DNA of 59,827 bases, the filler included. It is 4 parts of 4 records of this genome, joined end to end, with 100 filler letters (N's around TTAATTAATTAA, not from the genome) between each part and the next. Parts side by side here need not be neighbours in the genome. Positions count along the whole stretch, not along the records: positions 42,688 to 49,713 come from SRR22947725_1802; 3 more parts are not named here. One strand, 5' to 3'. A program made the position numbers and the translations under genes. The number at the start of each line of letters is the position of its first letter. Within the stretch, counting starts at the first letter, position 1. Shown one piece after another: positions 5,227 through 58,508 of this stretch. The notes under the pieces are model-generated. The model was not told the DNA's origin. It did not search any database and worked only from the letters and a program-made list of their open reading frames with translations.

Positions 5227-5234
5227 TATAAAAA

Positions 5235-14603: not shown

Positions 14604-14617
14604 GGCATAATTTTAGC

Positions 14618-14644: not shown

Positions 14645-14661
14645 AAATTTTCTGGTAGTTT

Positions 14662-35200: not shown

Positions 35201-38200
35201 TTTTGAGGCGTGCAGAGCCCTATGGGAGTCAGGGATCGTCGAAGCGAGGCCGTTCGCCGACCTGACCCTGGTCCTGCTGAACTTTGTCAGGCGCCACGAA
35301 TCAGAGGCGGAACTTCTCCTGCAATTGCCGGACGCCTTCATTGGACACCCCAATTGCGATTTGACGGCACTCAAAGATTATGTGATGAGGGACTTCCCCC
35401 GTGAGGCGTCCGAGCAGGTCAAGCGAAACGTACGTTACTGCCGCCCGATCTCCTCGAATCTCGAACATGATCGCTACTAGTTTTGCTTTTCATGCAGGTA
35501 CTGTCCGCGTGGATCGATTCGTTCACGATCGATACCGTTGGCCCCGCCGACGTTGTGAAAGTTCGCTTCCTCCTCCGACCGACGATCGATTGGTTGGTCG
35601 AGCACGATCAGTCCGAGGTCTTGTCTCCCGATATCATCGGGGGGCTTGTCACCAAGATATTCGGGGCGGTCTTAGCGGAAGATTCGGAGGGGGATGAGCT
35701 TTTTCAGTCCGAGGTGATCCAGATCTGTGTCGCGCTCGTCCAGCACGTTCCGCACCTCCTGCGCGAACACAAGAAGCTGATCATCCAATGTATTTGGTAC
35801 GTATATGGCGTACGTTCGAGCTCGCTGGTATTACCGCTTTTTACAGCCTGCGATATCGATCTTCTCCAGGTGGACCCTCAAGAAGGACAACATCGCGAAA
35901 TCCCACGCCTTTCTGTGCGTCGCGCACTTCTTCCGGGCGTACCTAGGCAACAAGGATGATGAGAACGATATCAACCTGGTGTTGAAAGCGTTTTTCAACA
36001 TGCTGAGGATGAACGCGCACGACTCGGCCACCCGCGAGGCAGTCAAGCAGGCGATCGACTATATCATCCCGATTTTGGGCGAGCAGACTGACGAGGGTGG
36101 AGATAGCGATCTTCATGCTGGAGTCGATACCCCCGATGGAGGCAAGAAGCGTCTCATCTTCCCGTCGGCGCTCAAAAGGTTGCTCCGTGAGGAGGGCATG
36201 ATGAGCCCCGTCATGGTGCTTGTTATGCAGATGGTCGTGCGGAATCGCGAGGCGTTCTACAGCTCGAGGCTGTCTTTCATCCCAGTGATACTCGCCAGCC
36301 TCAATAAGTACGGACTTCCGAACCAGTCGACGATCGATAGTAGGATTCTTGCCGTTGACATGGCGGTGACCATGTACTGGTGGGATGAGAAGGCTAAGGC
36401 CGAGAACATCAGCGGGGGAAAGGCCACACTGCTCACAAAAGAAATGGACACCAGCATCTTGAATTTCCTGCTCAGGATGACCTTCGTCAGGTACGTGCGA
36501 TCGTCGCGAATTTCCTTCTCCCACCTGACAGACCCCATCCTTCAGCTCGACCCTGCGATCTCCCCGCGCCCCGTCTCACCTGCACCGCACCGCACACTGT
36601 GCAGTTGTGAAGTCCGTGACCGTGACGAGACGGGCTGGAAGAAGCTGCATGCGCACTGCCTGAGCACGCTCTGCGACGCAGCCAAGTACAGGACGAATTG
36701 CTCCCTGAAGTTGCAGTTCTTCGAAAAGCTCCTGCATAACAGTGCGCAGCAGCAGAAGCAGCAGGCTGCCTCCGGCAAGTCTGTGGGGCCGAACCCCGTG
36801 CTGCTCACCGGATTGAGGATCTTCTCTGTGTTCATGGAGCACCAGCCCGTGAACCTGGTGGAGTGCTGCCATCAACAGCTGGCCCTCATGATCGAGCCGA
36901 GCATCTACAACAAGAATCTCAACACGATTGAACCGTTCTCCACTGCTATACGGCACTTCTATGCAGCATTCCCGGATGATCTGGCGGCCACTGACGCTGC
37001 GTCACTGACGAGCCCGGGGGCAACCGTCGAGGCGGCGGACGTCAAGAAGCACTTCGTTAAGACCCTCGAGAAGTATCTTACGCATATTTCGGAGGTTGAA
37101 CAGTTCAGTACAGACGTGTTCTGGTTCGCGTGCAACTGCGTTCGGGTCATGAAGGGTGCAACGGAGTCCTCACCTAGGTCTATGGACGAGGTGCTGCTCC
37201 TCCTCCTGAGGGCCATGAACCGGGTGGCCAAGGAGCACAGCAAGCAACCTCAATTGGGCTTACTCTCCTCCAAGGGTATGCCCCAGGAGTCGCTTTCGAA
37301 CGCCGAGTTCGGATCCGGTGCCTGGTTCATGTACCACGCCCTGGAGGTGTCCGTCCCGTCGGCCCTCGTCCTGTCTTCAGACCACAGGAAGCTGTTCCTT
37401 TCGACGGTCGTAGAATTGATGGCTGGAAATCCCGTCAGGCAGGGCCAGACCCATTCGGGGATCTTATTCTCCGTGATGCGACTGCTCCGCGACTGGCTGC
37501 TGGACGACTCTGTGGACTACCTCAACTCAAAGGAATCGCTTGTGCTCCTCCAGAGGCTTGCCCAGGTCGATAGGCTGCATGCCATTCCCACTGTCCTTCG
37601 AAAGGTATGGGACAAGGATTTCCTGGACTTCCTGTACACTCTGATAACGACAGATCCTGGGGGTGAGTTCGCCAACGATGTGTTCACGAAAGTCGAGAGG
37701 CCCTTCTGCTGCGGCCTGCAAAATCCGGACCCGGCCGTTCGTGCCAAGTTCTTCAAGCTATACTCGGAACGTATTCCCAGGGACTTGTTCGCGAGGCTCA
37801 GGTATATCATCCAGACCCAGGAATGGGAGTTCCTTTCGAACACGTTCTGGCTCAAGCACGCTGTTGCCCTGCTCTTCGACTGCCTGCACATGGAGGACCC
37901 GGTCACGCTCGCATACAATTCAGCACACGTCCCACAGCTATTTGATTACAAAGAATCCCTGATTCTTCCGACAAAGGACAAGTCTGGTGGCGGCACCTCA
38001 GCGGAGAATGAGCCGGCCGAGGTCGTCGCGGAGGACGACACGGGGGCGAAGCATGTGACGATACCGGAGGCCACGGAGGACCTCCTCAGGGACCATATCC
38101 GTTTCCTCAAGGAAGAGAGCGGACTCCGGTCGGTGTCTCTGGTGTCTTGCCTGATTGAGCAGGTGCAGACGGATCCACTTGTGGCACACCACCTGTGGGT

Positions 38201-41200
38201 ACTCCTGTTCCCCATCGTTTGGACGTCGCTCGAAAAAGAGCAGCAGACGGGTCTCGCGAAACCGATCATCCATCTCCTGTCCAAGGAGCACCACATCCGC
38301 CAGTCCTTGCTCCGTCCCACCGTCGGTCAGACCCTGCTGGACGGGATCAGCATGTCCCAGCCGCAGCCCAAAATCCCGGCTGAGATGATCAAGTACATGG
38401 GAAGGCATTTCCATGCATGGCACACGGCCATATCCATGCTCGAATCCCACGTGGGGCTATTTCCCCATGACATGCGCTGCTTCGATGCCGTTTGTGATCT
38501 GTACTCGATCCTTGGGGAAGAGGACATGAAGTGCGGCCTTTGGCAGCGCAGGGCCTCTGCTCCGGAGACTTCCATGGCCATGGCGTTCCAACAGCACGGA
38601 TTTGTGCCTCAGGCACAGAGCATCTTCCTGGAAATGATGTCACGCGCTGTCAGTGGTGACGTCGGTGGATTCACCAAGAGTGAGATGGTCCTCTGGCACA
38701 ACCAGTATTTGTCGTGTTGCATGGAGCTGAATCAGTGGGAGGTCGTCGCCGAGTACGCAAAGTCCGTCGATAACAGCGCACTGCGCCTCGAGGCATCTGC
38801 AAAGCTGTACGACTGGTCCTACCTCAAGACAATGATCGCCCCGAACGCGCAAGTAGAGGAGGGACCGGAGTTCACCCTTGTTAAGGCCCAAATGCAGATG
38901 TCGGACATGACGCTACTGGACGTGGACAAAATGTGCAAAACTGCCCTGTCGCAGTGCATCACCAGATGGTGGCAGATGCCTGAAACGTCCCCTTGGAGCT
39001 ATGCATCCGTATTGCATTCCTTCCAAAGAACGGTGGAGCTTATGGAGAGCTGGAGGGTTATGATGGAGTTCAGCATGCAGGGAGGCCAGGCCGGTCACTA
39101 CCAGGAGCTGAAGGATATTGCGGACACGTGGAAGCTCAGGACCCCGAACGAGTGGGAACCTGTCCACTGGTGGAGTGATATCCTTACTTGGAGGAATCAC
39201 GTGTACAACACGACCATCCGCCAGTTCAGCAACCTGCAGAACGTCAATCCGAACCTGCATCAACTTGGCTACCGAGACAAGGCCTGGAGCGTCAACCGCC
39301 TGGGTCATGTGGCCCGCCTTCACCACCTTCCGGAGGCGTGTATCCGCATAATTAATACTCTATACGGATTCAACGCCATGGAGGTGCAGGAAGCGTTCGT
39401 GAAGGTCCAGGAGCAGGCCAAGGCGTACATGCAAAAGCCATCGCAGTACATCCAGGGCCTCAACCTGATCAACTCCACCAACATGGACTACTTCAACCCG
39501 AATCACCACGCCGAGATGCACGCACTGAAGGGAGAATTTTTGCATCGCTTGAACGACCCGAAAGCCCACGACACCTTCAGCGAGGCCCTCTCGCTGTGGC
39601 CACTGTGCATCGAGGGGTGGATCAATTGGGGCAAGTATTGCGACACGCAGTATACCATCGCGTCGCAAAACGAGCAAAAAATGCAACAGGAGAATGGCAA
39701 CAAGCCCTTGGATCCCGTTCAATCGCAGCAGACGTCTACCTGGCTTGAGTACACTGCAACGTGCTACATCCAGGCCATTCGCTGCTCCGCGACCCAGGGC
39801 GTCTCCCTCGTGCCAAGGCTCCTCCGGCTGCTCGCCCTGGAGGGTAACGGACAACTCGTCGGAAAGCATCTGATACAGCACCTAGGGGATATTCCAGCTT
39901 GGATATGGCTGCCCTGGCTCCCGCAGATGATTGTGGGGCTGCAACGGCCCGAGGAGGCCACTGTGAAGCACATCTTGGGGGTGTCGGCGACGCACCATCC
40001 GCAGTACGTTTACTGGCAGATGAGACCGGCGTTAGCGCACCTTAAAGACGTAGCTTACAAGGCTATGAGCGAAAATGAGGCCAAGAAGGACGAGGAGATG
40101 CCCGATGCATCAGTATCTGGGGCCCCGAACTCCGCGACAGGAACACCACCGGCGGCCGGGAAGGTGACCGCATCAGCTTCGACGCCGGTGATGCCGGATT
40201 CCATCGGCGATAGTCCGCCAGAATACATCGCATATTGTCGTGCGAAACAGGTGATGGAACCGCTCCGTGCCAAGCAGGCAACACTTCAGACCCTCGACCT
40301 CTTCATCACTGAGCTCGGACAGAGGTTCACGGCCAGGACGGACGAGCGCCTGCTCGCTGTTGTGTACACATTGCAGCACCGCACATATAGAGTGATGATG
40401 CCTGCAAGTGCTGAGATTCCCGAAACGCTCTGCAAGGAGCTCTCGAGTGTCTGCAAGGCCTGTAGCAGTGCGGCCTCCAGCACCAGCAAAGGTGGTGTCG
40501 CCACTGGCACAAACTCTTGGAGCCATTGGAATGCCTACCAAATCAAGTTTGCCAACGACCTCGATATGTCGTCGGAGACGGCTCCAAAGAACCTTGGCGA
40601 GCTCACAGAGCGCCTCAAGGGCTGGCGGACCATGATGGAGGCCATCATTGAGGACACCAACCCAAGTCTGCTCAGACTTGAAGACATATCGCCCGCCCTG
40701 ATGGATATGGCAGTGGATGAAATCATGATGCCTTGTCAGGCGCCTCCTTCTCCCAGCATCCCTGAGCCGCTGTACGTCGAGAAGATGTGCGCCGATGTCC
40801 GCGTGGTGAGGAGGGCATGTTCTTCCTCAAGGAGGATCGCCATCACCGGCAACGATGGCCAAATCAAGCATTTCCTGGTCATGGGTCAGCAGAACAGTGG
40901 TCAAGGAAGTGGCGAAGAGCGTATCGGACAGCTGCTCCGAGCGGCCAACGCACTCCTGGACAGCCATCCTGAGAGCAGGCGCCGCGACCTCAAGTTTGCG
41001 GCACCCAGGTCCCATCTGCTGTACCCAGGTGGCAAGATTATGGAGGACGATGAGGCTAATTGTCTGTTCATTGACGCGTACGAGACGTTCTGCGCCAGGT
41101 ATGGCAAGGAGCCGGATGCTCCCATCGTCAAGTTCAAGGAGATGGTTTATGGGGAACCCCTGGACGAGAATCTGAATGACGAGGAGCGCCGACGCCAGCA

Positions 41201-41921
41201 TGAGGAACGTCGACGGAAGGCCTTCAACGAGATTGTTGATCCGGATAAGGGCATTGTAGGCGAGAACATCTTCTCGCAGTACATGTACAAGACCATGATC
41301 GAGAACTCCAAGACGATGTGGACCTTCAAGAGGCAGTTCGCTGGCAGCGTTGCGCTGTCAAGCCTTGCGTCGTTCGTGCTGCGCCTCAGCGGTCGGACGC
41401 CGAGCAAGTTGGTCATCTCCAAGGCAAGTGGGGCGCTCACTCACATTGAGCTGGTGACCAGCTACAACGATAGGCTTCAGTTGGATCTCCAGGGCGAACC
41501 TGTGCCCTTCCGCTTCACGCGGAATATGAGCACTTTCATCGGCCAGCAAGGCCTTGAGGGCCACAAGATCAGCTCCGCAGTCGCGGCAGCACAGGCGCTA
41601 TCCCAATCAGATGATACGAGGATGTCTAGTCTGCTCGCCCTGTTCTTGCTGCCCGACATTCTCGCCTTCATCGCCCGTCGCCTGAACGTGCGAAGTGTCG
41701 CGGCCATCGAGACTGTGACACCGGTCCAGATCCAGCATGCGATCATGCACAACGTGGTGCAATCGATCTCGAGATTGGAACGCGTTGCCCCGCAGGTACC
41801 AAATGATCCTACTCAGGAGCCGGAGAACCCAACGAAGGCCATGCGCGACTTGTTTGCCATGAGTGGGGCACCCAGCAACCTCTGCAAGCATCCCGATGTC
41901 ACCTGGCTTCCCTGGTATTGA
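29232..41921 (+). CDS. TRRAP: TRRAP/Tra1 PIKK pseudokinase, 8 coding exons, ~4028 aa; introns 29453-29522, 29900-29991, 30195-30281, 31017-31115, 35430-35497, 35797-35869, 36491-36604
   Basis: Phase-consistent GT-AG joins link the ORF fragments. Tra1 motifs AQVKTL, CLLVPARL, LGKMGGRGR, WKLRTPNEWE, LGYRDKAW, WLPWLPQ, EPVPFRFTRN and terminal FATC WLPWY. Probable 5'UTR intron 29071-29222. Confidence 0.92.
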
Positions 41922-42587: not shown

Positions 42588-42687
42588 NNNNNNNNNNNNN
42601 NNNNNNNNNNNNNNNNNNNNNNNNNNNNNNNTTAATTAATTAANNNNNNNNNNNNNNNNNNNNNNNNNNNNNNNNNNNNNNNNNNNN
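42588..42687. other. Artificial contig spacer
   Basis: N44-TTAATTAATTAA-N44. Confidence 0.98.
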
Positions 42688-42780
42688 CGTATAGCCATGC
42701 GCCCTGAGTTCGCCCAAATAATCGTCGAGGGGTCGAGCGGGCCATACCATCCCAGCGATGGGAGAAGGACACTTCATCAT
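42688..42780 (-). CDS. N-terminus of a truncated protein, possibly phytanoyl-CoA dioxygenase (PhyH) family
   Basis: GGGAG upstream of ATG 42780; LDDYLGELRAHGYT resembles PhyH N-termini. Only 31 codons are visible. Confidence 0.3.
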
Positions 42781-43259
42781 TTGGTGCTCCCGAAAAACGA
42801 TCCGATATTTAACCATAAGACCGACTGAAGACCCATCACCCACGTAATTGAGCCTCTGGGCCGTGGGACTCAGCCTCACAACGGGTGATCGGTTCAGCAC
42901 GTGTGCAGCAAGATAACATTGTCGGTTTTTACAGCAGCGAATTGAGCCTGGCCATCAGCTTTAATAGCCTCCGACGTAACGACCGAGCCTGCCGCAATTG
43001 CACGACAATTGACGTGCTAGGCCATATCTCGGCGCACTCCCCGTCTTATCAGCGGCGACACTTGATGGATACCAAACTTAGTCAGGCTTGTAATTTGCGC
43101 AAAATCTTTGGCCTGGCTTGCTGAACACTATGATTTAGAATGGCGCTTGAGCTCAATCAGAATGCTCCGGCCGTCCGAGCCATATGGCCCTATTCGAAAA
43201 CAAAACTGCTCAAACTTATATATCGTAGGGCGCCGCATCCTTAACCACCATCAGCTCGA

Positions 43260-43592
43260 GGCAACGCCTCAGCGACAGTCGCAACGAAGTATCCATTATT
43301 CAGTTTGATTGACGGAATCTCACCTTTTACCAACTTCTAACGCTGGCTCATTCAGGATTGGAAAAACGTTTCTCCTCTAAAGTGCTCCTTGGGATGTACC
43401 AAAGGTAAGTTCAGATTGCGCTTCGCGTTTTTTCTTTATTCTAGAAGTCCTTTCCCAAATTAAGATCGGAATGTAAGTATCAGAAAGAGACCTGGGCACA
43501 CTGCTTTTGCCTAGGACCTCATCAGATCGTATTCGTGCGGGCTTTTTTCGATTCGTTCTAAACACTTCAACTTGGAATGCAAAACCATCCAT
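43260..43592 (-). pseudogene. Degraded N-terminal fragment of an M48/YgjP (DUF45) metallopeptidase gene
   Basis: VEVFRTNRKK..VPRSLSD, then frameshifted fragments GETFS and VKGEIPSIKLNNGYFVATV; stops and frameshifts; no HEXXH region. Confidence 0.6.
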
Positions 43593-43729
43593 TCCGAAAA
43601 CGTCCCTCCTGTGAGTTCTGTGAACCTATCGGTGCTAGGTTTCACCAAAGAAACACCGAAGTCCTTCGAAAGAAACACTTTTATATTTCGTGCGACTCTT
43701 TTCTGCTCGACCTATTCGTCGAAGACAAC

Positions 43730-45097
43730 CTACACGTGCCCATAACTCACCATTGCGTCGGCAACCTTTACGAAACCAGCGATATTGGAACCTTTGAGAT
43801 AATTGACCTGACCTCCGGTGTCCCCATATCGAACACAACTATCATGAATATCTTGCATCATGTTTTCGAGCAGTTTTCGAAGATGATCTTCATCCCAGGC
43901 AATGCGAGCACTGTTTTGGCTCATCTCCAACCCTGACACACCGACGCCCCCCGCATTAACCGCTTTGGCTGGACCAAACAGTATCTGTGCATTCAAAAAT
44001 GCATCCACCGCTTCTTGCTCGCAAGGCATATTTGCCGCTTCTGCGACGGCCATGATCCCGTTTTTGATCAGAATCGCGGCTTCTTCGCCATTGATCTCGT
44101 TCTGAGTCGCCGAAGGAACGGCGCAATCACCTTCAACACCCCAAGGCCGTCCGTCATGGAAACTGATATTATTAAATTCATCTGCCGCCTCAGAGATACG
44201 CCCACGCCGGGCCCCTTTGAGCACCTTAATCCAATCAATTTGTTCCTGAGTGAAGCCTTCTTTGCAGTGAATAAAACCACTGGAGTCACTCATTGTGATC
44301 GGTACTGCCCCCAAATGAAGACATTTTTCAGCCGCATAGGTTGCGACGTTGCCACTACCTGAAATCAAGGTTCGCTTACCCTCAATAGTACCTTTATGCT
44401 GGGCCAACATATTTCTAAGAAAGAAAATCGCGCCATAGCCGGTTGCTTCCGTGCGCATTTTAGAGCCACCGTATTCCATACCTTTGCCCGTGAGCACGCC
44501 CACGAACTCGTTTGTGATTCGTTTATACTGACCAAACATAAAGCCGATTTCTCGACCACCAACGCCAATATCCCCTGCAGGCACATCAGTATCTGCACCA
44601 ATATGCCGATAAAGCTCCGTCATAAACGATTGGCAAAACCGCATCACCTCATTATCGCTTTTGCCTTTAGGGTTAAAGTTAGCACCGCCTTTACCGCCGC
44701 CCATCGGTAGGCCCGTTAGGCTGTTCTTAAATGTTTGCTCAAAGCCTAAAAATTTCAGGATGGATTGATTGACGCTAGGATGAAATCGTAACCCCCCCTT
44801 GTAGGGACCGATCGCAGAATTGAACTGAACGCGCCACCCACGATTCGTGCGCACGCGGCCTGCATCATCTGTCCACGGAATACGAAAAGAGATCACACGC
44901 TCAGGTTCGGCCATACGCTCTAAAATCTGCAATTCGTGATAAATCGGTTTGTCGGCTATATACGGAAAAATTGAGGAGGCAACTTCATAAACAGCCTGCA
45001 CAAATTCGGGCTCACCTGGATTTCGCTTCAGAACCCCCTCCATATACCTTCTTAAATACTCTTCTGTTTTTGCCGAGTCTTGATGAGATTTAGACAT
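43730..45097 (-). CDS. gdhA: NADP-specific glutamate dehydrogenase
   Basis: GPYKGGLRFHPSVN, LPMGGGKGG, DVPAGDIGVGGREIG, SGSGNVA, KAVNAGGV. Confidence 0.96.
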   Translation of the reverse strand: MSKSHQDSAKTEEYLRRYMEGVLKRNPGEPEFVQAVYEVASSIFPYIADKPIYHELQILERMAEPERVISFRIPWTDDAGRVRTNRGWRVQFNSAIGPYKGGLRFHPSVNQSILKFLGFEQTFKNSLTGLPMGGGKGGANFNPKGKSDNEVMRFCQSFMTELYRHIGADTDVPAGDIGVGGREIGFMFGQYKRITNEFVGVLTGKGMEYGGSKMRTEATGYGAIFFLRNMLAQHKGTIEGKRTLISGSGNVATYAAEKCLHLGAVPITMSDSSGFIHCKEGFTQEQIDWIKVLKGARRGRISEAADEFNNISFHDGRPWGVEGDCAVPSATQNEINGEEAAILIKNGIMAVAEAANMPCEQEAVDAFLNAQILFGPAKAVNAGGVGVSGLEMSQNSARIAWDEDHLRKLLENMMQDIHDSCVRYGDTGGQVNYLKGSNIAGFVKVADAMVSYGHV

Positions 45098-45785
45098 TGA
45101 TTCGCTCCATTAGCTGAAATTCGTTAACCATTTGTGGTTCCGATTTCTTTTGAAAATTTCTTTTCAAGAAATCTGACATTTTTTAACATTCTAGCTTCAT
45201 GACCCCATGGTTTTACGGACGCCTCTGCCGGAGGCCGCGCGAGAAACTAAAGCTGGAATTTGATTTGAGCAGTTTTTTTACCTAACCCATTTATTTTCGA
45301 TCTGATCAGATTCTTTTTTCTATATTGTTATCGGCGATAGAGCCTGCTTGACTAAAGAAGGTTTAGATCAATTATCTGATTTGAAAGATTACAAATTTAG
45401 TAAGGATGAAGGCGAAAATCTGAAATTTTCAACCTGGGAACATACTACGGTGTTTTAAGCAGCGTTGGCAATTGATTTCCGACGACACCGTCTCGGATCG
45501 TTATGCCGGTGGCATAGAAAGTTGTACCCCACCATTCATGTCGATACGGCTCGCGTCTCACCGCATCGCAATATTTACCGCTTCTACTGAGTTTCTTTCC
45601 TGATAATCACGAAAGGCAGAAATATGAGACGCTCTTAATCGCGTTTGGGGGAGCCGAGCGATTGCCTTTACGAATAAGAGAAGAATTACTGCTAATTGGA
45701 CAGATCTTTCGTTATGGTAGTTCCATGATTGAAACAGCACGCCGAGACATTCTAGATCTCTGGCCATAATCAGGAGAAGACAACT

Positions 45786-47438
45786 ATGACAAAAGCATCA
45801 GATCTATTTATTGAGTGTCTGGAGGCAGAAGGCTGTGAATACGTTTTCGGTATTCCTGGAGAAGAGAACCTGGATTTTCTCGATAGTCTCAGCCGGTCCA
45901 AAAAAATCAAATTAATTCTCACACGGCATGAGCAGGGCGCTGGCTTCATGGCATCTGTCTACGGACGTCTAACCGGCAAGACGGGCGTCTGTGTTGCAAC
46001 GCTTGGCCCAGGTGCAACCAACTTCACGACGGCAGCGGCTTACGCTCAGCTTGGCGGCATGCCTATGATGATGATCACCGGTCAAAAACCTGTGAAAAAA
46101 TCCAAACAAGGTCGGTTCCAGATTCTGGACGTTGTCGAGATGATGAAGCCGATTACGAAATACGCAGTCTCGCTCGTAGCTGGCGATAACATTCCTTCCC
46201 GTATTCGCGAAGCCTATCGAGTTGCTGAGGAGGAAAAACCGGGTGCTGTTCATATCGAGCTGCCAGAGGATATCGCTGATGAAGAAACTGACGAACGTCC
46301 GATTCCAGCTTCAGCCGTGCGAAGACCCATCGCTGAGCCTAAGTCCATCGCCCTAGCGCTGGAAAAGCTGCACAGCGCGAAATCACCGATTATTATTATC
46401 GGTGCCGGCGGCAATCGCAAAATGACTTCGAAAATGTTGACCGCCTTTATTGATAAAACCGGCATTCCCTTTGTAACCACCCAACTTGGTAAGGGCGTGG
46501 TGGATGAGCGCCACCCATTGTTCATGGGTTGCGCCGCGCTCTCTTCAGGCGATTTTGTGCACCGCGCCATCGAGGCTTCTGATCTGATCCTCAACATTGG
46601 CCACGACGTGATTGAAAAGCCGCCGTTCTTTATGAAGGCAGGTGGTACTGAGGTTATCCACATTTCTTACAATACGGCGGAGGTAGACCCGGTCTATTTC
46701 CCTCAAATAGAGGTCATTGGCGACGTGGGCAATGCCGTTTGGCAAATGAAGAACGACGTCAAGACAAGCGCAGAAGCTGACTGGGACTTTAGCCGCATGG
46801 TGACAGTGCGGAAGCATCATGACGCCAACGTCCTAGAGGGTTCAGACGATGCGCGTTTCCCGTGCTATCCACAGCATGTCGTCAAATTAGTGCGCGAGGC
46901 CATGCCTGACGATGGCATCATTTGCCTAGATAATGGCGTTTATAAAATATGGTTTGCCCGCAACTATCGCGCGCACCAGCCCAACACTGTTTTACTCGAT
47001 AACGCTCTAGCAACTATGGGCGCAGGCCTGCCTTCAGCGATGGCAGGCCATATGGTTCATCCTGATCGTAAGGTACTGGCGATCTGCGGAGACGGTGGTT
47101 TCATGATGAATTCTCAAGAATTGGAAACTGCGGTACGAGAGAAGATGAACATTGCTATTTTGATCCTGAACGACAACTCGTACGGCATGATTCGTTGGAA
47201 GCAAGCGAACATGGGCTTTGATGATTGGGGGTTGCAGTATGGCAACCCGGATTTCGTAAAGTACGTTGAGGCCTACGGTGGCATTGGCCATCGAGTGGAA
47301 TCGGCCGAGGCACTGCCTGGTATCCTGAAGACTGCGCTCTCGACGCCCGGGGTGCATCTGATTGATTGTCCCGTTGACTATGTCGACAACGATCAGATAC
47401 TTAATGTCGATATCAAAACGCGCTCTGCATCGATTTAA
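45786..47438 (+). CDS. ThDP-dependent enzyme, acetolactate-synthase-large-subunit-like (candidate 2-oxoacid decarboxylase)
   Basis: FGIPGEENL, RHEQGAGFMA, TLGPGATN, GDGGFMMNSQE..LNDNSYGMI ThDP motif; no small subunit gene nearby. Confidence 0.9.
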   Translation: MTKASDLFIECLEAEGCEYVFGIPGEENLDFLDSLSRSKKIKLILTRHEQGAGFMASVYGRLTGKTGVCVATLGPGATNFTTAAAYAQLGGMPMMMITGQKPVKKSKQGRFQILDVVEMMKPITKYAVSLVAGDNIPSRIREAYRVAEEEKPGAVHIELPEDIADEETDERPIPASAVRRPIAEPKSIALALEKLHSAKSPIIIIGAGGNRKMTSKMLTAFIDKTGIPFVTTQLGKGVVDERHPLFMGCAALSSGDFVHRAIEASDLILNIGHDVIEKPPFFMKAGGTEVIHISYNTAEVDPVYFPQIEVIGDVGNAVWQMKNDVKTSAEADWDFSRMVTVRKHHDANVLEGSDDARFPCYPQHVVKLVREAMPDDGIICLDNGVYKIWFARNYRAHQPNTVLLDNALATMGAGLPSAMAGHMVHPDRKVLAICGDGGFMMNSQELETAVREKMNIAILILNDNSYGMIRWKQANMGFDDWGLQYGNPDFVKYVEAYGGIGHRVESAEALPGILKTALSTPGVHLIDCPVDYVDNDQILNVDIKTRSASI

Positions 47439-47452
47439 GATGCGCTGAGATT

Positions 47453-47476
47453 GTGACGGGCTCAAGAGTCCGTCAC
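47453..47476 (+). other. Intercistronic hairpin without U tract
   Basis: GTGACGGGCTC-AA-GAGTCCGTCAC between the ThDP enzyme and ALDH genes. Confidence 0.6.
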
Positions 47477-47508
47477 CCACCATTCAAAATAAATCAGGAG
47501 ACCTAGCC

Positions 47509-48951
47509 ATGTCGACGCTTCAGGCTAACTACCCATACTATCTAAACAATAAAGCGGTTTACGCCAACGAAGATCTTGAGGTTACTGACAAGTACACGGG
47601 CGAAGTGGCAACCCGTTGTGCATTGGCTGATGCGAAGGCGATCGACGAAGGCATTAGCGGTGCAGTTCGTGCGACCGAACCTATGGCGAAAATGGCATCT
47701 TTTGAGAAGAAAGCGGTCCTTGAGCATTGCGTGACCCGGTTTAAAGAACGCTTCGACGAGCTCGCCATGGCGCTGTGCATCGAGGCGGGGAAACCTATTA
47801 ATGATGCCGAAGGTGAGGTGACGCGTTTAATCGATACCTTTCAGATTGCCGCGGAAGAATCGACTCGTATGCATGGTGAATTGCAGGCATTGGATATTTC
47901 GCCTCGCGCAAAAGGCTATCAGGGCATGTGGAAACGGGTTCCGATTGGGCCTTGCTCGTTTATTTCCCCTTTTAACTTTCCGCTTAACCTGGCTGCGCAT
48001 AAGATTGCCCCTGCGCTAGCAGTCGGTTGCCCATTTGTCATGAAACCCGCTTCTCGGACACCGCTCGGCGCCATCATCATGGGAGAAGTGCTCGCTGAAA
48101 CGGATTTGCCCGAAGGCGCATTTTCAATTCTTGCGTGCTCACGCGACGGCGCTGATTTGTTTACCGTTGACGATAGACTTAAGTTGCTGTCGTTTACCGG
48201 TTCACCCGGTGTGGGTTGGGATTTAAAAGCACGTTGCGGCAAAAAGAAGGTTGTCTTGGAGCTTGGCGGTAATGCGGCTGTTGTCGTTGATGCGGATACA
48301 AAAAACCTCGATGATACCGTCAATAGAATTATTTTCGGTGCCTTCTATCAGTCGGGGCAATCGTGCATTGGCGTTCAGCGCATTATGATTCATGAAGCTA
48401 TTTACGATGTAATGAAAGCCAAGTTGGTGGCTAAAACGGCGACATTGATTAAGGGCGATCCAAAAGTTCGGGAGACATTCATTGGACCGATGATCTCAGA
48501 AAGTGAGGCGACCCGTCTCCATGGCTGGATTCAATCTGCCGCAGCGGCCGGTGGTAAGATTCTTTGTGGCGGCACGCGGGATGGCGCAATGTTAGACGCC
48601 ACACTAATGGAAAATGTGCCGCTTACCCAAGACTTGTGTGTGGAAGAGGCATTTGGCCCGGCAGCTGTTTTACAAAAATTTTCAAGCTGGGATCAAGCCA
48701 TATCAATGGTGAATGACAGCAAGTTTGGTTTGCAAGCTGGCATCTTCACTCGAGACTTCTACAAAGTGCAGCAAGCCTGGGATGAAATGGAAGTGGGGGG
48801 TGTCGTTGTAGGAGATGTACCTTCCTACCGCGTAGACAACATGCCCTATGGTGGCGTGAAAGATTCCGGGATCGGTAGAGAGGGTATTGTCTTCGCGATG
48901 GAAGACATGACTGAAATACGGAATCTCGTGATTCGGACACCCCCAGAATAA
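47509..48951 (+). CDS. Aldehyde dehydrogenase, ALDH21-like (probable NADP+ succinic semialdehyde dehydrogenase)
   Basis: PFNFPLNLAAHK, KPASRTP, FTGS, LELGGNA, FYQSGQSC, EEAFGP, YRVDNMPYGGVKDSG; AGGAG RBS. Confidence 0.88.
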   Translation: MSTLQANYPYYLNNKAVYANEDLEVTDKYTGEVATRCALADAKAIDEGISGAVRATEPMAKMASFEKKAVLEHCVTRFKERFDELAMALCIEAGKPINDAEGEVTRLIDTFQIAAEESTRMHGELQALDISPRAKGYQGMWKRVPIGPCSFISPFNFPLNLAAHKIAPALAVGCPFVMKPASRTPLGAIIMGEVLAETDLPEGAFSILACSRDGADLFTVDDRLKLLSFTGSPGVGWDLKARCGKKKVVLELGGNAAVVVDADTKNLDDTVNRIIFGAFYQSGQSCIGVQRIMIHEAIYDVMKAKLVAKTATLIKGDPKVRETFIGPMISESEATRLHGWIQSAAAAGGKILCGGTRDGAMLDATLMENVPLTQDLCVEEAFGPAAVLQKFSSWDQAISMVNDSKFGLQAGIFTRDFYKVQQAWDEMEVGGVVVGDVPSYRVDNMPYGGVKDSGIGREGIVFAMEDMTEIRNLVIRTPPE

Positions 48952-48983
48952 TCTGCCCTGGTCGCCCTTAAAGATGTATGCGC

Positions 48984-49713
48984 TGTGTGTCGTCAGAACC
49001 TTTCGGACACCTGGCTGGCTGATCTAAGAGACACGTCAGCTCATCAGGGTGAGCGGTTCCACTCGGTTGCGATCAGGCATCTTGCGACGCATGGCCATAG
49101 TATTCAACTTGATCTGTTGTCTCCTAGCCAGGGTGGATTCGCCCCGAGCGCAGAAAACAGACACCGGAGTCAGATTGTTTAGCGACTCGTGGGACCGGTC
49201 GTTGTTCTAGTAATCAACGAAGCGCTCTATACGAGCTTCCAGTTCTCCTGGCAGATAGTAGTTCTCAAGCAGGATCTGGTTTTTCAGGGAACAGTGCCAG
49301 CGCTCGATCTTACCTTGGGTTTGCGGATGATACGGGCTTCCTCTCGTGTGCTTCATATCCTGCCCCGCAAGATACTTCGCCAGGTCCGACGCGATGTAGG
49401 CAGGGCCATTGTCAGACAACAGCCGCGGGCTTGTGTTTAACCTTCATTGTGTTGAGTCCTGTGAAACTCAGGGCGTCATCTTCCAGATGGAGTTGGGCAA
49501 AGGCTTGCAGTCTTCCAACGCATCGATCCCGCCTTCGTCAAAGCGATTCAGCCAGGCGTAGAACGTGGATCGTCGAATATCCAACCTTTGCAGCGTCTTC
49601 TTCACAGGCAAACTGGACCGCTCTACGGATCGGATAATTTCGTATTTCTCGGAGGCCGAATATCTCATATAACTTCCTCCCCATTCCCAATCATGCAACC
49701 ATCCACTATGGTT
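48984..49713 (-). mobile_element. IS3-family insertion sequence remnant (internally deleted, inactive)
   Basis: MRYSASEKYEIIR..RSTFYAW HTH fused directly to SDNG..HPQTQGKIERWH integrase C-terminus; frameshift, premature TAG at 49207-49209; terminal TGTGTGTCGTCAG end at 48984. Confidence 0.85.
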
Positions 49714-49813
49714 NNNNNNNNNNNNNNNNNNNNNNNNNNNNNNNNNNNNNNNNNNNNTTAATTAATTAANNNNNNNNNNNNNNNNNNNNNNNNNNNNNNN
49801 NNNNNNNNNNNNN
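49714..49813. other. Artificial contig spacer
   Basis: N44-TTAATTAATTAA-N44. Confidence 0.98.
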
Positions 49814-50024
49814 CGAAATAAAAGCGAGAAAGCGAAATAAAAGAAGATCGGGAAACGCCATAAACTTGCGGGAAGGGCATCTGGAATAGCGGAAAGCTAA
49901 ACGCGCAAAGCTAATAGCTAAAAGCGCCCGGTAATAAAGGACATTAGCGGCGAAGAACGCAGTGAAAAGCGCTAATGCCGCGACAAATTAACAACGATTA
50001 TAATGAACCAAAGGGAAGCAGTAT

Positions 50025-51194
50025 ATGAATCTTCATGAGTACCAAGCCAAGCAATTGTTCGCTGAATATGGTCTGCCCGTTTCGGAGGGTATTGCTGTAG
50101 ACAGCGGTGATGAAGCCGTGGCAGCAGCCAAGAAAATTGGCGGTGACCGATGGGTTGTTAAGGCGCAAGTGCATGCCGGTGGCCGTGGTAAAGCCGGTGG
50201 TGTGAAGCTGTTTTCTGACTTTGATGAGATCAAAGCGTTTGCCGACAGTTTGATTGGAACCAATTTAGTGACCTTTCAAACAGACGAGCATGGCCAGCCT
50301 GTTTCTAAGATTTTTGTCGAAACCTGCACTGATATTGCACGTGAATTGTATTTAGGTGCAGTGATTGATCGCTCCAGCCGGCGGGTCGTCTTTATGGCGT
50401 CCACGGAAGGGGGCGTTGAAATTGAACAAGTTGCTGAAGAAACGCCTGAAAAAATTCTCCGGGCGGTGATTGACCCGGCGTTGGGTGGGCAGGCCTACCA
50501 GGGTCGTGAGATGGCGTTTAAGCTGGGTCTTGAAGGCAAACAGATTAATCAGTTTGCGCAGGTGTTTGTCACGCTGTCGAAGCTGTTTGTTGAACGCGAT
50601 TTGTCTTTGCTTGAGATTAACCCCTTGGTTGTGACCGAGGCTGGCGATATACATTGCCTCGATGCGAAGGTCTCGATCGATGGTAATGCCCTGTATCGCC
50701 AGAAGGCGCTTGCCTTGATGAATGATGCTTCTCAAGAAGATGAACGTGAGGCGCAAGCTGCCAAGTTTGGACTGAATTACGTAGCCCTTGAAGGCAACAT
50801 CGGCTGTATGGTGAACGGTGCTGGATTGGCCATGGGAACGATGGATTTGGTCAAACTGTTTGGGGGACAACCTGCAAATTTCTTGGATGTTGGCGGCGGT
50901 GCAACCAAGGAAGCGGTGAGCGAAGCCTTTAAGATCATCTTGTCGGATACGGCGGTTAAGGCGGTCCTGATCAATATCTTTGGCGGGATTGTCCGTTGCG
51001 ACATTATTGCTGAGGGCATTATCGGAGCGGTTAAAGAGGTCGGTGTGAGGGTGCCGGTTGTTGTTAGATTTGAAGGCAATAACGCAGAGCTCGGTGTCAA
51101 AACGTTGGCTGAAAGCGACGTTAAAGTGATTGCGGCAACCAGCCTCACGGATGCGGTTGAACAAGTTGTAAAGGCAGCAGGAGGAGCACAATGA
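50025..51194 (+). CDS. sucC: Succinyl-CoA synthetase beta subunit
   Basis: [49 protein letters not shown]. Confidence 0.98.
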
Positions 51195-52066
51195 GCGTTT
51201 TAGTTAGCAAGCAAACGAAGGTTATTTGTCAAGGATTCACCGGTGCTCAAGGCACGCTGCATTCGCAACAGTCGATCGCCTATGGGACTCAAATGGTGGG
51301 TGGCATAACACCTGGCAAGGGCGGGCAGACCCATTTGGGGCTGCCGGTTTTTGACACCGTTGCCGCGGCGGTTGCTGAAACCGGCGCCGACGCAACCGTT
51401 ATTTATGTGCCGGCGGCGTTTGCTAAAGATGGTATTTTGGAAGCGGCTGAGGCGGGGATTAAGCTAATCGTCTGCATTACAGAGGGATTGCCGACGCTGG
51501 ACATGCTTGCCGTGAAGGTCCGGGTTGATGAATTAGGGATTCGACTGATTGGGCCGAACTGTCCGGGTGTGATCACGCCAGGGGAATGCAAGATTGGAAT
51601 CATGCCAGGCGATATCCACCTGCCAGGTCGAGTGGGTATTGTTTCTCGATCCGGTACCCTGACCTATGAGGCGGTCAAACAGACGACGGATCTAGGGTTT
51701 GGTCAGAGTACGTGTGTTGGGATTGGCGGAGACCCAATTCCTGGAACCAATTTCATTGACGTGCTCGAGCTGTTCGAGAACGATCCAGGCACCGAGGCAA
51801 TTGTCATGGTGGGTGAGATTGGCGGAAACGCAGAAGAAGAGGCAGCGGAGTACATCAAGGCACATGTTACCAAGCCGGTTGTGGGTTACATTGCCGGTGT
51901 TACGGCGCCGCCTGGTAAGCGCATGGGCCATGCTGGCGCGATCATCGCCGGTGGTAAAGGCACAGCCGATGATAAATTTGCAGCGCTGACAGCGGCAGGT
52001 GTTGTGACGGTTAAAAGTCTTGCCTCGATTGGTGATGCTTTGAAAGAGGCGACGGGCTGGTCTTAG
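51191..52066 (+). CDS. sucD: Succinyl-CoA synthetase alpha subunit
   Basis: [33 protein letters not shown] overlap with sucC. Confidence 0.98.
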
Positions 52067-52078
52067 TCGTTTGCTCAT

Positions 52079-52108
52079 AAAAAAAGCGGCTAACAGCCGC
52101 TTTTTTTT
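52079..52108. terminator. Intrinsic terminator of sucCD
   Basis: A7-GCGGCT-AAC-AGCCGC-T8. Confidence 0.92.
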
Positions 52109-52130
52109 GATCTCAAATATCAGTAGGGGG

Positions 52131-52158
52131 GTTGAATTCACTCAACGAACCCCCACTT
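52131..52158 (+). promoter_or_regulatory. Sigma-32 (RpoH) heat-shock promoter of htpG
   Basis: GTTGAA-N14-CCCCACTT versus consensus CTTGAA-N13-14-CCCCATNT, directly upstream of htpG. Confidence 0.8.
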
Positions 52159-52187
52159 TTCTATAGATAACAAAAGCGAGGTAAGCC

Positions 52188-54089
52188 ATGACGGATGCAA
52201 CTGAAAAAGAAACGCTCGGGTTTCAGACTGAGGCGAAGCAATTGCTTCAGCTGATGATTCATTCTCTGTACTCCAATAAAGAAATCTTTTTAAGGGAGTT
52301 GATCTCCAATGCATCCGATGCGATCGATAAGCTTCGGTTTCAAACGTTATCCAACGAAGCCTTGGTGGATGAGGGTGCGGATTACCAAATTCGAGTCATT
52401 GCCGATGCAGAGCAGAAAACGTTGTCGTTTATCGACAATGGGATCGGCATGAACCGCGCAGATGTTGTGAGTCATTTGGGGACTATTGCAAAATCCGGCA
52501 CGGCGGAATTCTTGTCGGGTTTAACGGGTGATCAGAAAAAGGACTCACAATTAATTGGTCAGTTTGGGGTTGGTTTTTATTCTGCTTTTATTGTTGCAAA
52601 AAAAGTTGTTGTAGAGACCCGGCGGGCCGGCGATGCCGAATCCGAGGGTGTTCGATGGGCGTCGACCGGTGAGGCCGATTATGAAATTGAAACCATCGAT
52701 AAAACTGAGCGTGGTACCTGCGTTATCTTGCACTTGCAAAGCGAACACGAAGAGTTTTTAGATTATTGGCGTCTGCAGAATGTCATTAAAAAGTATGCCG
52801 ATCATGTGTCCGTGCCGGTTTCGATCTTAAAACCAGCTGAAAAAGATGACGAGGCTGCGACAGAAGAAGTCGTTAATAGTGCGACGGCGCTTTGGACTCG
52901 GTCTCGATCTGAGGTGAAGGACGAGGAATACCAAGATTTTTATAAGCACATTGCGCACGATTTTCAGGATGCCCTAACCTGGAGTCATAATCGGGTTGAA
53001 GGCAAACTGGATTACACCAGTTTGATTTTTGTTCCTGCCAAGGCGCCTTTTGATCTCTGGAATCGGGAAGCCCCCAAGGGTTTGAAGCTGTATGTGCAAC
53101 GGGTTTTCATCATGGATGAGGCCGAGCAGTTTCTACCCTTGTATCTCCGGTTTATAAAAGGGGTGGTTGATTCCAACGACCTGTCCCTAAATGTGTCCCG
53201 GGAAATTCTGCAAAAGGACCCGGCTATTGAGTCGATGAAGTCGGCCCTGACTAAAAGAGCGCTAGATACCCTTGAAAAGCTGGCTAAGAAAGATCCCGAA
53301 GCCTACCAAAGTTTTTGGGCGGAATTTGGGCAAGTCTTAAAAGAAGGCCCAGCAGAAGATTTTGCAAACAAAGAAAAGATTGCGGCGTTACTGCGATTTG
53401 CGACGACGGAGACGGGCCAGGCAACTCAAAATCAGTCTTTGGCGGACTATGTTGCTCGAATGAAACCGGATCAAGAAAAGATCTATTATGTTGCTGCAGA
53501 CAACCATGCCACAGCAGCGAACAGCCCGCATCTGGAGGTGTTCCGAGCAAAAGGCGTAGAAGTCTTGCTGTTGTCGGACCGAATCGATGAATGGCTGGTT
53601 GGTCACCTGATGGACTTTGATGGTAAGCCCTTGCAGGATGTCGCAAAGGGATCATTGGATCTCGGTGAAGCCGATCCTGAAAGCAAAGCGGCTCAAGCAG
53701 AAACTGAGGAGGCCATGAAGGGTCTACTTGAGCGCGTTAAGACTGAATTGGGCGATGCCGTTTCTGAAGTCAAAGTCAGCCATCGTTTGACCGATTCCCC
53801 TGCGTGTTTGGTGGTTGCAGAGGATGAAATGGGGATGCAAATGCGGCGTATTCTGGCGCAAGCAGGCCAAGATGTGCCCGAGGCCAAACGCATTTTTGAG
53901 ATCAACGTCGGCCACCCCTTGGTCCAGCGCTTGGATGAAGAGGTTGATGTGGATCGCTTTAAGAGCCTAACCCAAGTTTTGTTCGATCAAGCGCTACTCG
54001 CGGAAGGCAGCCAATTGAAAGACCCTGCAAGTTATGTCCAGCGGTTGAATAAGATCTTGCTGGAATTAACCGCAACCCAAAACGGATGA
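52188..54089 (+). CDS. htpG: Chaperone HtpG (Hsp90)
   Basis: [48 protein letters not shown]. Confidence 0.98.
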
Positions 54090-54100
54090 TCGAGACGTGA

Positions 54101-54577
54101 ATGGTTAATGCTGTAAGCCCGGATGCTGAGACGATTGATGTCGTGTTGATGCGCCATGGCGAGGCGCGGGCGCTTGCAGGAAAAGACGCCGCGCGGCCCT
54201 TAACGCAGTGGGGGTGCGCGGCGGTCCAGGCTGCGGCACACAAACTTGCGAAAAAATCCCCATCAGCGGAAGGTGTGCGTTCGAGCCCTTATTTGAGGGC
54301 GCGTCAGACGGCGGAGATTGTCTCAGAAGTGCTCAATTTACCGCTTCTGCCCGAGTCGGCTGAACTGGTACCCTCGGGTGATTCAGATCAATTAGTTGCC
54401 TGGCTTTTAGCTGAGGCGCAGCCCGTGATATGGGTTTTTCATATGCCGTTAATTGGCCGTTTGATTCACGACTTAACGGGTTGTGACGTCTTTCCAAAGA
54501 CCGCCAGTGTCTTTGGCTTGAAACTGTTTCCAGGCGCACCAAGCCGTCATCAACATCAATTAGAGTGGCAACTATGA
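54101..54577 (+). CDS. sixA: Phosphohistidine phosphatase SixA
   Basis: MRHGEA, DAARPLT, SSPYLRARQTA. Confidence 0.85.
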   Translation: MVNAVSPDAETIDVVLMRHGEARALAGKDAARPLTQWGCAAVQAAAHKLAKKSPSAEGVRSSPYLRARQTAEIVSEVLNLPLLPESAELVPSGDSDQLVAWLLAEAQPVIWVFHMPLIGRLIHDLTGCDVFPKTASVFGLKLFPGAPSRHQHQLEWQL

Positions 54578-55470
54578 GTTTTAATGTTCTAAAGCAAAAA
54601 TCGGGGTATTTTAGCCTCATTTTAACAATAGTTAGTGGGCTGGGTTGGTCGAATGCGGTGATTGCACTCGAACTCGATATCGCCTCAGAGGTGGTTGAGG
54701 TCAGCCAGGCCGGCCCAGTTGAGCGCCACAAGATTTTTCTGAGCCGGCTCAAGAAAATTAGCAATAGCCTAAGCCGAGATGAATATCAGATGGTTCAGGG
54801 CGTGTTGCAAGGACAAACCTATAAAGCAGACGATGATGCGACCCTAGAAGAAGTGATGGCATCTCTTGATCGAGCAGTGGACGAGGGTTATGAGCGTTTG
54901 TTTGAATGTGTTGGCCGGGGTTGCGGTAGCAGTAATGAGTGGGCGAATGCGGTTTTTGGTCAGCCCAAATTGTACGGCCCGGAAAGCACTCAATTCTATT
55001 GGGTCGGTAAGGCGGTTCAATCACAGACTTATTGGTTGGTCTATGGTTCAAAACGGTCCAATAAGGCGGTTCACTATCGGGTCGAGTCAGTCGTCTCAGC
55101 GGCGCCGAGTCTGAAAAGCCGCCTGTTTGCTGCGTTTTCCGAATTGGGGTATCTGCGATTAGCCTGGTCTGACGTGGTAGGTTCTGAGGTGGAATTGGCG
55201 GAAGCGCTTGATCTTTGGTGCGGGCAGCAGCGCCTTGGTGGGGGCGCCCAAGACAAAGCGCGACAGATCGCTCTGGCGGTCACGGGTGGCGATGTGAATT
55301 TGACGCCGAGCGCTGGCGTTGATGCGACAGAGCGACTTGCCAGCGAATTGCTTACAACCTTGGCTGCAAAGCCCGGATTAGGCTGTCAAATGTCTGCATT
55401 TGGGTTGGGTCGCCTGTCGCCGATTGAGGGCTTACCAAACGAGCGTCTTGATTTGATACTGTTACCGTGA
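54574..55470 (+). CDS. Exported protein, DUF4892-like
   Basis: Signal peptide; LSRLKKI, LFECVGRGCGSSNEWANAVF..LYG motif; ATGA overlap with sixA. Confidence 0.75.
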   Translation: MSFNVLKQKSGYFSLILTIVSGLGWSNAVIALELDIASEVVEVSQAGPVERHKIFLSRLKKISNSLSRDEYQMVQGVLQGQTYKADDDATLEEVMASLDRAVDEGYERLFECVGRGCGSSNEWANAVFGQPKLYGPESTQFYWVGKAVQSQTYWLVYGSKRSNKAVHYRVESVVSAAPSLKSRLFAAFSELGYLRLAWSDVVGSEVELAEALDLWCGQQRLGGGAQDKARQIALAVTGGDVNLTPSAGVDATERLASELLTTLAAKPGLGCQMSAFGLGRLSPIEGLPNERLDLILLP

Positions 55471-55482
55471 TTGGGTGAGGCG

Positions 55483-56031: not shown

Positions 56032-56127
56032 ACCGCCTCCTGTAGTAACGCCCAGCCTTTGCTGCAAAATTGCAAGGATCCATGGCTCGCATTGGTCTAT
56101 AATAGCGCATTTTCAGGATGAGTCCGC

Positions 56128-57201: not shown

Positions 57202-57392
57202 TTCATCAGAGGGTGTGGGCTGTAACGCGGCGCCAACAGTGCTGTTTTGGCGCTGTAAGGACCGTTTTGATCCAGTATTTTGGGATTAGTTGATGCGTCA
57301 TAGCGCGGGCCGCGAAGAGCGGTAACCGGTAAAAGGCGTTCTAGGGGTTCTACCCTCGAGCGTTTCATAAACAATAGACATTGAGAAAAAGT

Positions 57393-58412: not shown

Positions 58413-58508
58413 CGCAGCAGGCGTCGTTTCTAGCGCCTAAGTGGGTTAGCATGGGAATTCAGGGGTGAGCGATGATTTTGCCCGAATTTAGTTGGAGTAG
58501 AAACTGTG

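Follow-up and report, generated by a model that had tools for sequence, protein, structure and literature searches.

A candidate 2-oxoglutarate decarboxylase gene, labelled acetolactate synthase, paired with an ALDH21-type aldehyde dehydrogenase gene and divergent from gdhA

Cyanobacteria carry a two-gene operon, ogdA-ssaD, in which an acetolactate synthase-like thiamine diphosphate (ThDP) enzyme is followed by an aldehyde dehydrogenase (ALDH), as described in passages of two reports (PMC5160925, PMC10418658). The moss ALDH21 is presented in passages of a third as a tetramer that acts as an NADP+-dependent succinic semialdehyde dehydrogenase (SSADH) (PMC7823795). Sets of 2-oxoglutarate (2-OG) decarboxylase and SSADH were deduced from genomes in Thiomicrorhabdus and are discussed for methanotrophs (passages of PMC9751133 and PMC6373157), and 2-OG decarboxylase activity was reported in Pseudomonas fluorescens extracts, the gene not being named in the passages concerned (PMC6716453). 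Here we describe a locus in the window, i.e., the whole stretch of 59,827 nucleotides of DNA analysed, where gdhA is divergent from a gene for a ThDP enzyme labelled acetolactate synthase and a gene for an ALDH. Leaving gdhA aside, family placement, conserved residues, gene pairing and gene fusion make it probable, as far as sequence can tell, that the ThDP enzyme and the ALDH are a 2-OG decarboxylase and NADP-dependent SSADH pair. Such a pair would vary a pathway that has been known since 2011 and would bring in no new kind of chemistry. The locus is composed of the following features:

43730..45097, minus strand: gdhA, NADP-specific glutamate dehydrogenase, 455 aa (NF006929; Pfam ELFV_dehydrog and ELFV_dehydrog_N)
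45098..45785, no strand: divergent intergenic region, 688 bp, without an open reading frame (ORF) of at least 80 aa and without an Rfam match
45786..47438, plus strand: ThDP enzyme, class A in NF006187, 550 aa; proposed 2-OG decarboxylase (profile, alignment and tree)
47439..47508, no strand: gap between the ThDP and ALDH genes, 70 nt; it contains a ribosome-binding site (AGGAG) and lacks terminator-like sites
47509..48951, plus strand: ALDH21-type aldehyde dehydrogenase, 480 aa; proposed NADP-dependent SSADH (structure-sequence match and tree)

In the proposed pathway, the ThDP enzyme would convert 2-OG to succinic semialdehyde and CO2 by non-oxidative, ThDP-dependent decarboxylation, and the ALDH would oxidise succinic semialdehyde to succinate with NADP+. 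The divergent gdhA may supply 2-OG from glutamate, which would give a route from glutamate to succinate free of coenzyme A (CoA) and lipoate.

An earlier note on this DNA had described gdhA as divergent from a ThDP and ALDH unit with a 70-nt gap, and the coordinates agree, with 688 bp between gdhA and the ThDP gene. All the motifs that it quoted from both enzymes are present in the translations. The ThDP enzyme has PGEENL at residues 24-29, RHEQ at 47-50 and TLGPGATN at 72-79, with loops GQKPVKKSKQGRFQ at 99-112, DNGVYKIWFARNY at 382-394 and LLDNALATMG at 403-412; the ALDH has EVTR at 103-106, CSRDG at 210-214, FYQ at 279-281 and YRVD at 440-443. GdhA scores 694.5 bits over residues 11-454 against NF006929 (NADP-dependent glutamate dehydrogenase), passing the cut-off of 536. 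AGGAG precedes the ATG of both the ThDP gene and the ALDH gene, and we infer that the two are co-transcribed. Promoter-like sites (10 vs. 7.9 in shuffled sequence) and terminator-like sites (6 vs. 7.6) show no excess. An inverted repeat with 7-nt arms, TTGAAAA-N4-TTTTCAA, occupies 45153-45170, upstream of the gdhA start by approximately 55 nt; its sequence is rich in A/T, and chance may account for it.

The label on the ThDP enzyme comes from NF006187, 'acetolactate synthase large subunit' (= PRK08322, typed 'equivalog' in NCBIfam), which it matches with 876.5 bits over residues 2-549 of 550, above the cut-off of 509. The nearest PDB entries are also titled acetolactate synthase, and a protein atlas returned only 'putative acetolactate synthase' clusters for the family. 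Taken at face value, the enzyme would be an acetolactate or acetohydroxyacid synthase, or some other carboligase, and the ALDH an unrelated neighbour. We find this very improbable, and the label is unlikely to be correct. The enzyme falls below both AlsS cut-offs (TIGR02418, 406.1 vs. 551.1 bits; NF006378, 442.8 vs. 510) and below that of the biosynthetic enzymes IlvB/IlvI/IlvG (TIGR00118, 351.5 vs. 538.35), whereas a true AlsS taken as control (P0260) reaches 955 bits with TIGR02418 and 927 bits with NF006378. NF006187 itself takes in two classes alike, the class A of the window enzyme and a KGD-type class B, the latter at 763 and 659 bits; 2 of 14 named control genomes pass it. No small-subunit ORF is found on the 7-kb contig. 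The earlier note had also pointed to the lack of ilvH, ilvN or ilvC beside the locus, and indeed none is present on that contig, although this weighs little on so short and isolated a contig. Finally, a carboligase with an unrelated neighbour would hardly explain why the ThDP gene is paired with an ALDH21-like gene in 87 of 140 loci with enough room downstream, nor why 73 of 82 longer relatives are fusions of the two.

The two classes emerge from a homologue search of 1.84 billion cluster representatives, which gave 150 hits; the 95 hits of 500-1100 residues were aligned together with the window enzyme. Class A contains 33 sequences including that of the window and is marked by DNGxYKxWFARNY, LLDNALATMG and YGMIxWKQ. 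Class B contains 42 and is marked by DVGAHKxW, ISNGFASMG and YGLIxWKQ; the remaining aligned sequences are AlsS-like (3) or other (18). Between the window enzyme and class B representatives, identity is 39-43%. A FastTree tree with the AlsS-like sequences as its root gives the class A clade support 1.0 and 38 leaves (33 class A, 1 class B and 4 others), with core support of 0.974, and places it among poorly resolved class B lineages with backbone supports of 0.23-0.73. The true AlsS (P0260) falls in the outgroup, apart from both classes. The named rows of the class B profile search are Methanoperedens, Methanolobus, Methanomethylovorans, anammox bacteria, Zixibacteria and others. Two unusual architectures were seen among the relatives: P0141 (677 aa, from a cluster of 16 members) is a class B ThDP enzyme with a C-terminal cyclic-nucleotide-binding domain, and P0527 (964 aa) is a distant ThDP enzyme fused to a class I/II aminotransferase domain.

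What links class B to the cyanobacterial enzymes is the active site. For the Microcystis KGD (MaKGD), passages of PMC10418658 name V382, A384, H385, K386, A408, M410, D435, D462, Y465, L467 and K471; the roles come from docking into an AlphaFold model, and two lysines are proposed to hold 2-OG. Class B carries exactly these residues at identical spacing (P0142 numbering plus 2), and therefore we take it to be of the cyanobacterial KGD/OgdA type, an assignment from residue pattern, with a tree built without named cyanobacterial OgdA sequences. In the window enzyme, the two lysines are kept as K387 and K472. All 160 related loci have both without exception, and likewise N383, Y386, D405 and N406. 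Its ThDP machinery is present (E49, GDGG at 435-438, N462-D463 and M411) and invariant in all 160 relatives where checked. With the MaKGD pocket mapped by spacing and through class B (Q254 unmapped), K387, A409, Y466 and K472 are kept; the AlsS of B. subtilis has Ala and Gln at the positions of K387 and K472. Since the roles are docking-derived, conservation of the lysines is weak evidence for 2-OG binding. Together with the tree and the sub-cut-off scores, these residues support a placement of the ThDP enzyme with the putative KGD/OgdA-type enzymes, not with AlsS or IlvB. The earlier note's claim of a separate subfamily differing from OgdA at the listed loops holds, and this subfamily corresponds to the class A clade.

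The same pocket brings in the main rival to the 2-OG and succinic semialdehyde reading. Four of the nine non-cofactor pocket residues differ from those of MaKGD (V to N383, A to V385, H to Y386 and L to M468), as might be expected if this same architecture worked on a different 2-oxoacid that is also anionic (for example 2-oxoadipate, oxaloacetate, hydroxypyruvate or 3-sulfopyruvate), with the ALDH oxidising the matching aldehyde. The ALDH could be read that way too: it passes no curated NCBIfam cut-off, and its best rows, all sub-threshold, are lactaldehyde, sulfoacetaldehyde and phosphonoacetaldehyde dehydrogenases. We nevertheless hold a different substrate to be unlikely, because in the PDB search the ALDH is far nearer to the SSADH ALDH21. 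After three Burkholderia ALDHs (733-752 bits) comes moss ALDH21 (5mz5; 560.5 bits, residues 8-477), while the next family, the MJ1411-type lactaldehyde dehydrogenase, has 275 bits and GabD approximately 232.

R106 (EVTR), R212 (CSRDG), Y280 (FYQ) and R441 (YRVD) of the ALDH are identical to ALDH21 in the 5mz5 alignment, and so are the catalytic E251 and C286. In ALDH21, two Arg and the Tyr reportedly hold the substrate carboxylate and another Arg lies at the NADP 2′-phosphate, as Kopecna et al. are said to have described in 2017. The catalytic residues, the Arg/Tyr/Arg triad and Arg212 are also kept in five other bacterial ALDHs from such pairs that were aligned, and the ALDH tree puts the window protein in a clade with plant and algal ALDH21-like domains. 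The likeness to moss ALDH21 with four named residues kept, proposed in the earlier note, is thus confirmed. By its sequence, the ALDH is a member of the ALDH21 group, and we propose that it is an NADP-dependent SSADH, with both substrate and cofactor predicted from that membership.

Two sets of related loci were compared. The 80 genome loci, at 63-84% identity, belong to species representatives of Sphingomonadales, Pseudomonas, Burkholderia, Paraglaciecola, Planctomycetota and other groups; the 80 metagenome loci have 59-91% identity. Pairing was counted where at least 1.5 kb of sequence lies downstream of the ThDP gene, an ALDH21-like gene being one with at least 60% identity, on the same strand and within 1.6 kb:

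78 genome loci: ALDH21-like 52; other ALDH 8; no ALDH 18
62 metagenome loci: ALDH21-like 35; other ALDH 8; no ALDH 19

Where the ALDH21-like partner is replaced, the substitutes are informative. In Pseudomonas chaetocerotis (L040), a gene for GabD (NF008415, 957.7 bits; cut-off 828) lies immediately downstream of the ThDP gene, and in L078 the replacement has as its best match an SSADH model (NF006915) whose cut-off of 730 it does not reach (574.9 bits). Six of nine replacement ALDHs scanned (L025, L030, L034, L053, L065 and L075) are a sister type to ALDH21 with the Arg/Tyr/Arg triad kept, and L039 has an upstream ALDH resembling 2,5-dioxovalerate dehydrogenase. The partner swap for an established SSADH is the strongest pointer, although an indirect one, to succinic semialdehyde as the intermediate, and it speaks against another 2-oxoacid as the substrate.

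The two enzymes are also found as one protein. Two cluster representatives among the first 150 hits are ThDP-ALDH fusions, and in a search for longer relatives the 73 fusions out of 82 hits combine ThDP domains with PF00171, their ThDP part being 47-61% identical to the window enzyme. In 29 of the 73, the ALDH half is ALDH21-like (50-62% identity to the window ALDH); approximately 42 have the sister type, and two are borderline at 49%. The class A motif DNGxYK is present in 71 of the 73, the two borderline fusions having DTGMFK instead. The ALDH21-like fusions come from the liverworts Riccia and Calypogeia, the fern Ceratopteris, the green algae Bryopsis, Ostreobium, Coccomyxa and Elliptochloris, the red alga Rhodosorus and the thraustochytrid Hondaea. 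Hence, the family of the published moss SSADH is physically joined to class A ThDP enzymes in other plants and in algae. The UniRef name of fusions P0457-P0523 is 'NADP-dependent glyceraldehyde-3-phosphate dehydrogenase'. Altogether, the counts and the fusions support the ThDP enzyme and the ALDH as a unit conserved across phyla and often fused.

L089 is the closest relative (91% and 94% amino-acid identity), and what it has in common with the window is confined to 45781-48955, at 79% nucleotide identity. In L089 (6189-9357), similarity begins 5 nt ahead of the start codon of the ThDP gene and stops 4 nt after the ALDH stop codon; the pair behaves like a self-contained unit in unrelated surroundings. 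Directly upstream of the ThDP gene, 11 Sphingomonadales-type loci (L015, L023, L024, L026, L030-L033, L044, L047 and L048) have a D-isomer-specific 2-hydroxyacid dehydrogenase, whose best NCBIfam row is NF041369 (186 bits, sub-cut-off). This enzyme could feed a 2-oxoacid to the pair, e.g., from D-2-hydroxyglutarate to 2-OG, and it would fit any other feed of a 2-oxoacid from a 2-hydroxyacid equally, a point in favour of the rival with a different substrate. In three planctomycetotal loci (L054, L057 and L059), the upstream position is taken by a 524-aa pyridine-nucleotide-disulphide oxidoreductase (Pyr_redox_2 and dimerisation domain). Other neighbours are lineage-specific: cysS, cobT, short-chain dehydrogenases/reductases, an OprD porin, a lactonase and a Na/H exchanger.

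Whether gdhA belongs to the system is another matter. A GdhA homologue (61-67% identity) occurs within 10 kb in 8 of the 80 genome loci (L006, L011, L013, L019, L020, L041, L050 and L054) and in 4 of the 80 metagenome loci (L096, L098, L102 and L113), i.e., 12 of 160, vs. 1 of 160 for the sucC control. L011 and L013 have the divergent layout of the window; in L006, L020, L041, L054, L098 and L113 gdhA is upstream on the same strand, and in L019, L050, L096 and L102 it is downstream of the ALDH. The gdhA link of the earlier note is thus partly supported: gdhA recurs near the pair, in at least five arrangements, but it is absent from L089, whose neighbours are unrelated to those of the window. 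Of the 8 gdhA-bearing genome loci, 5 are Sphingomonadales, so that the events are not all independent. We regard the link as suggestive and not conserved; a functional tie between gdhA and the pair is possible but somewhat doubtful.

We lean instead, with some confidence, towards a real 2-OG and succinic semialdehyde unit with gdhA as an incidental neighbour and no three-gene module from glutamate to succinate. The divergent orientation with its 688-bp gap agrees with this, and so do the other surroundings of L089 and the 148 of 160 related loci that have no gdhA within 10 kb. It is harder to reconcile with the count of 12 against 1 for sucC, when the rough expectation for any one gene is ~0.5%, and with the varied arrangements in Sphingomonadales, Caulobacterales, Pirellulaceae and metagenome contigs. 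For the nature of the substrate, gdhA does carry some weight: its product is 2-OG, and it is the sole metabolic neighbour recurring across orders, which is a further point against a different 2-oxoacid.

Several observations weigh against a 2-OG decarboxylase and SSADH pair, in addition to the four pocket differences named above. Class A forms its own clade. No cyanobacterium is among the named rows of the class B profile search, so that class B is tied to OgdA by residue pattern. 13bb, the solved structure nearest to the window enzyme (494 bits), carries no title beyond 'acetolactate synthase', and Met takes the place of K387 in it. For the ALDH21 residues, what was compared here is identity and not role. 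The loci with no downstream ALDH in the count above include most Pseudomonas loci. Full-text searches, with most subscription journals outside their scope, returned no assay of a class A enzyme. Lastly, 4 of 5 carrier genomes tested encode a SucA that passes the TIGR00239 cut-off, leaving no obvious gap to fill; among the five, it was not found in the Bythopirellula chromosome. In most hosts, therefore, the pair would run alongside 2-oxoglutarate dehydrogenase as a side route and would not replace it. The earlier note had spoken of a bypass of that enzyme: a 2-OG to succinic semialdehyde route is probable from the pair, but the word 'bypass' does not suit most hosts.

The boundaries of the locus deserve care, since the window is made of four contigs strung together with N44-TTAATTAATTAA-N44 spacers at 15490-15589, 42588-42687 and 49714-49813. 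The 12-mer TTAATTAATTAA has a stop codon in all six frames, and such an all-frame-stop spacer is a usual device to string contigs together. The joins next to the locus and the four pieces are:

42588..42687, no strand: artificial contig linker (N44-TTAATTAATTAA-N44), left edge of the contig with the three genes
49714..49813, no strand: artificial contig linker, right edge of that contig; past this linker, another contig carries sucCD
1-15489: GC content 0.371; TonB-dependent receptor and arginine-pathway genes
15590-42587: GC content 0.569; eukaryotic genes
42688-49713: GC content 0.491; gdhA, ThDP enzyme and ALDH only
49814-59827: GC content 0.513; sucCD, htpG, aroC, asd and fimV

The four pieces are evidently from different organisms and, as they were joined artificially, gene order across the joins carries no meaning. 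The contig at 42688-49713 has 7,026 bp with gdhA, the ThDP gene and the ALDH gene as its only sizeable ORFs; therefore, nothing else in the window can serve as context for them. Within the contig, the adjacency of the three genes is genuine, as contigs assembled in two other studies run across it, one (X3 record 15) spanning 42688-47889 with 4 differing letters and the other (X7 record 23) spanning 42688-46634. Run X2 covers parts of this contig only, and its uncovered part proves nothing. The lower shares of runs X15-X19 might stem from the eukaryotic part alone. A candidate observation of sucCD (50025-52066) without sucAB beside the shunt was dropped, since the linkers put sucCD on another contig. 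For the same reason, the description of the host in the earlier note as a heterotrophic marine proteobacterium finds no support here: sucCD, htpG and fimV are on other contigs of a mixed, concatenated record. Rfam gave zero matches across the whole window.

The second piece, 15590-42587, carries a homologue of Tra1/TRRAP that is split into three or four ORFs at 29913-41921 (Tra1_central, Tra1_ring, FAT and PI3/PI4-kinase), a PP2A-A-like HEAT protein at 21001-22794 (minus strand), a Ser/Thr kinase at 22934-24844, Vps26 at 24917-26200 and a PAN-domain protein at 15998-19828 (minus strand). It looks like an intron-poor eukaryote binned with bacterial contigs and not like gene transfer into a bacterium.

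The consequences would be broad if the proposed functions are true. A large and widespread family under the name 'acetolactate synthase large subunit' would be misnamed, with NF006187 spanning both the KGD type and class A, and a second route at the 2-OG node would be missing from the metabolic reconstructions made for many bacteria and for some plants and algae. A gene could be given to 2-OG decarboxylase activities known only from extracts, such as that of P. fluorescens in the passages of PMC6716453. A joint reading goes further: class A enzymes with ALDH21-type or sister ALDHs would be a widespread, CoA- and lipoate-independent, NADPH-yielding module from 2-OG to succinate, shared by Sphingomonadales, Pseudomonas, Burkholderia, Planctomycetota and Gammaproteobacteria of marine origin. 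This module would explain the orphan activity of P. fluorescens. In liverworts, ferns, thraustochytrids and both green and red algae, one bifunctional KGD-SSADH protein would do its work, which would give ALDH21 a substrate supplier independent of the gamma-aminobutyrate shunt. With gdhA, the module would take glutamate to succinate with a yield of 2 NADPH. As a whole, we put this forward as speculative and rather unlikely.

Four described systems can be set beside the locus. Among families with solved structures and an established function, AlsS (B. subtilis 4RJJ, K. pneumoniae 1OZF) is the nearest; it shares the three-domain ThDP fold family at ~330 bits, but it has SNGMQT for the LDNALAT of the window enzyme and Ala/Gln for K387/K472, and it is the outgroup in the tree. 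The sets of Thiomicrorhabdus and methanotrophs, proposed for marine Gammaproteobacteria, have this route at the 2-OG node in common with the locus and differ in that they were reported, in the passages cited above, for autotrophs without 2-oxoglutarate dehydrogenase. The Physcomitrella ALDH21 (PDB 5MZ5/5MZ8/5N5S) matches the window ALDH at the catalytic Cys/Glu, Arg/Tyr/Arg and Arg212 positions and shares its clade, whereas the window enzyme is bacterial, stand-alone and linked in a putative operon to the ThDP enzyme. The closest parallel is cyanobacterial OgdA/SsaD (SynPCC7002_A2770/A2771, Sll1981 and Microcystis MaKGD), with the same order of an acetolactate synthase-like ThDP gene and then an ALDH gene, the same NF006187 umbrella, the catalytic Glu, GDGG...ND, Met411 and both lysines, K387/K472. 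In contrast, the window ThDP enzyme lies in the separate class A clade with N383, V385, Y386 and M468 for V, A, H and L, its partner is of the ALDH21 type and not the GabD type, and the hosts mostly have SucA. Taken together, the locus most likely encodes the same chemistry as cyanobacterial OgdA/SsaD, as predicted from these comparisons, by way of a distinct ThDP clade (DNGxYKxW, LLDNALATMG and YGMIxWKQ) and a distinct ALDH family.

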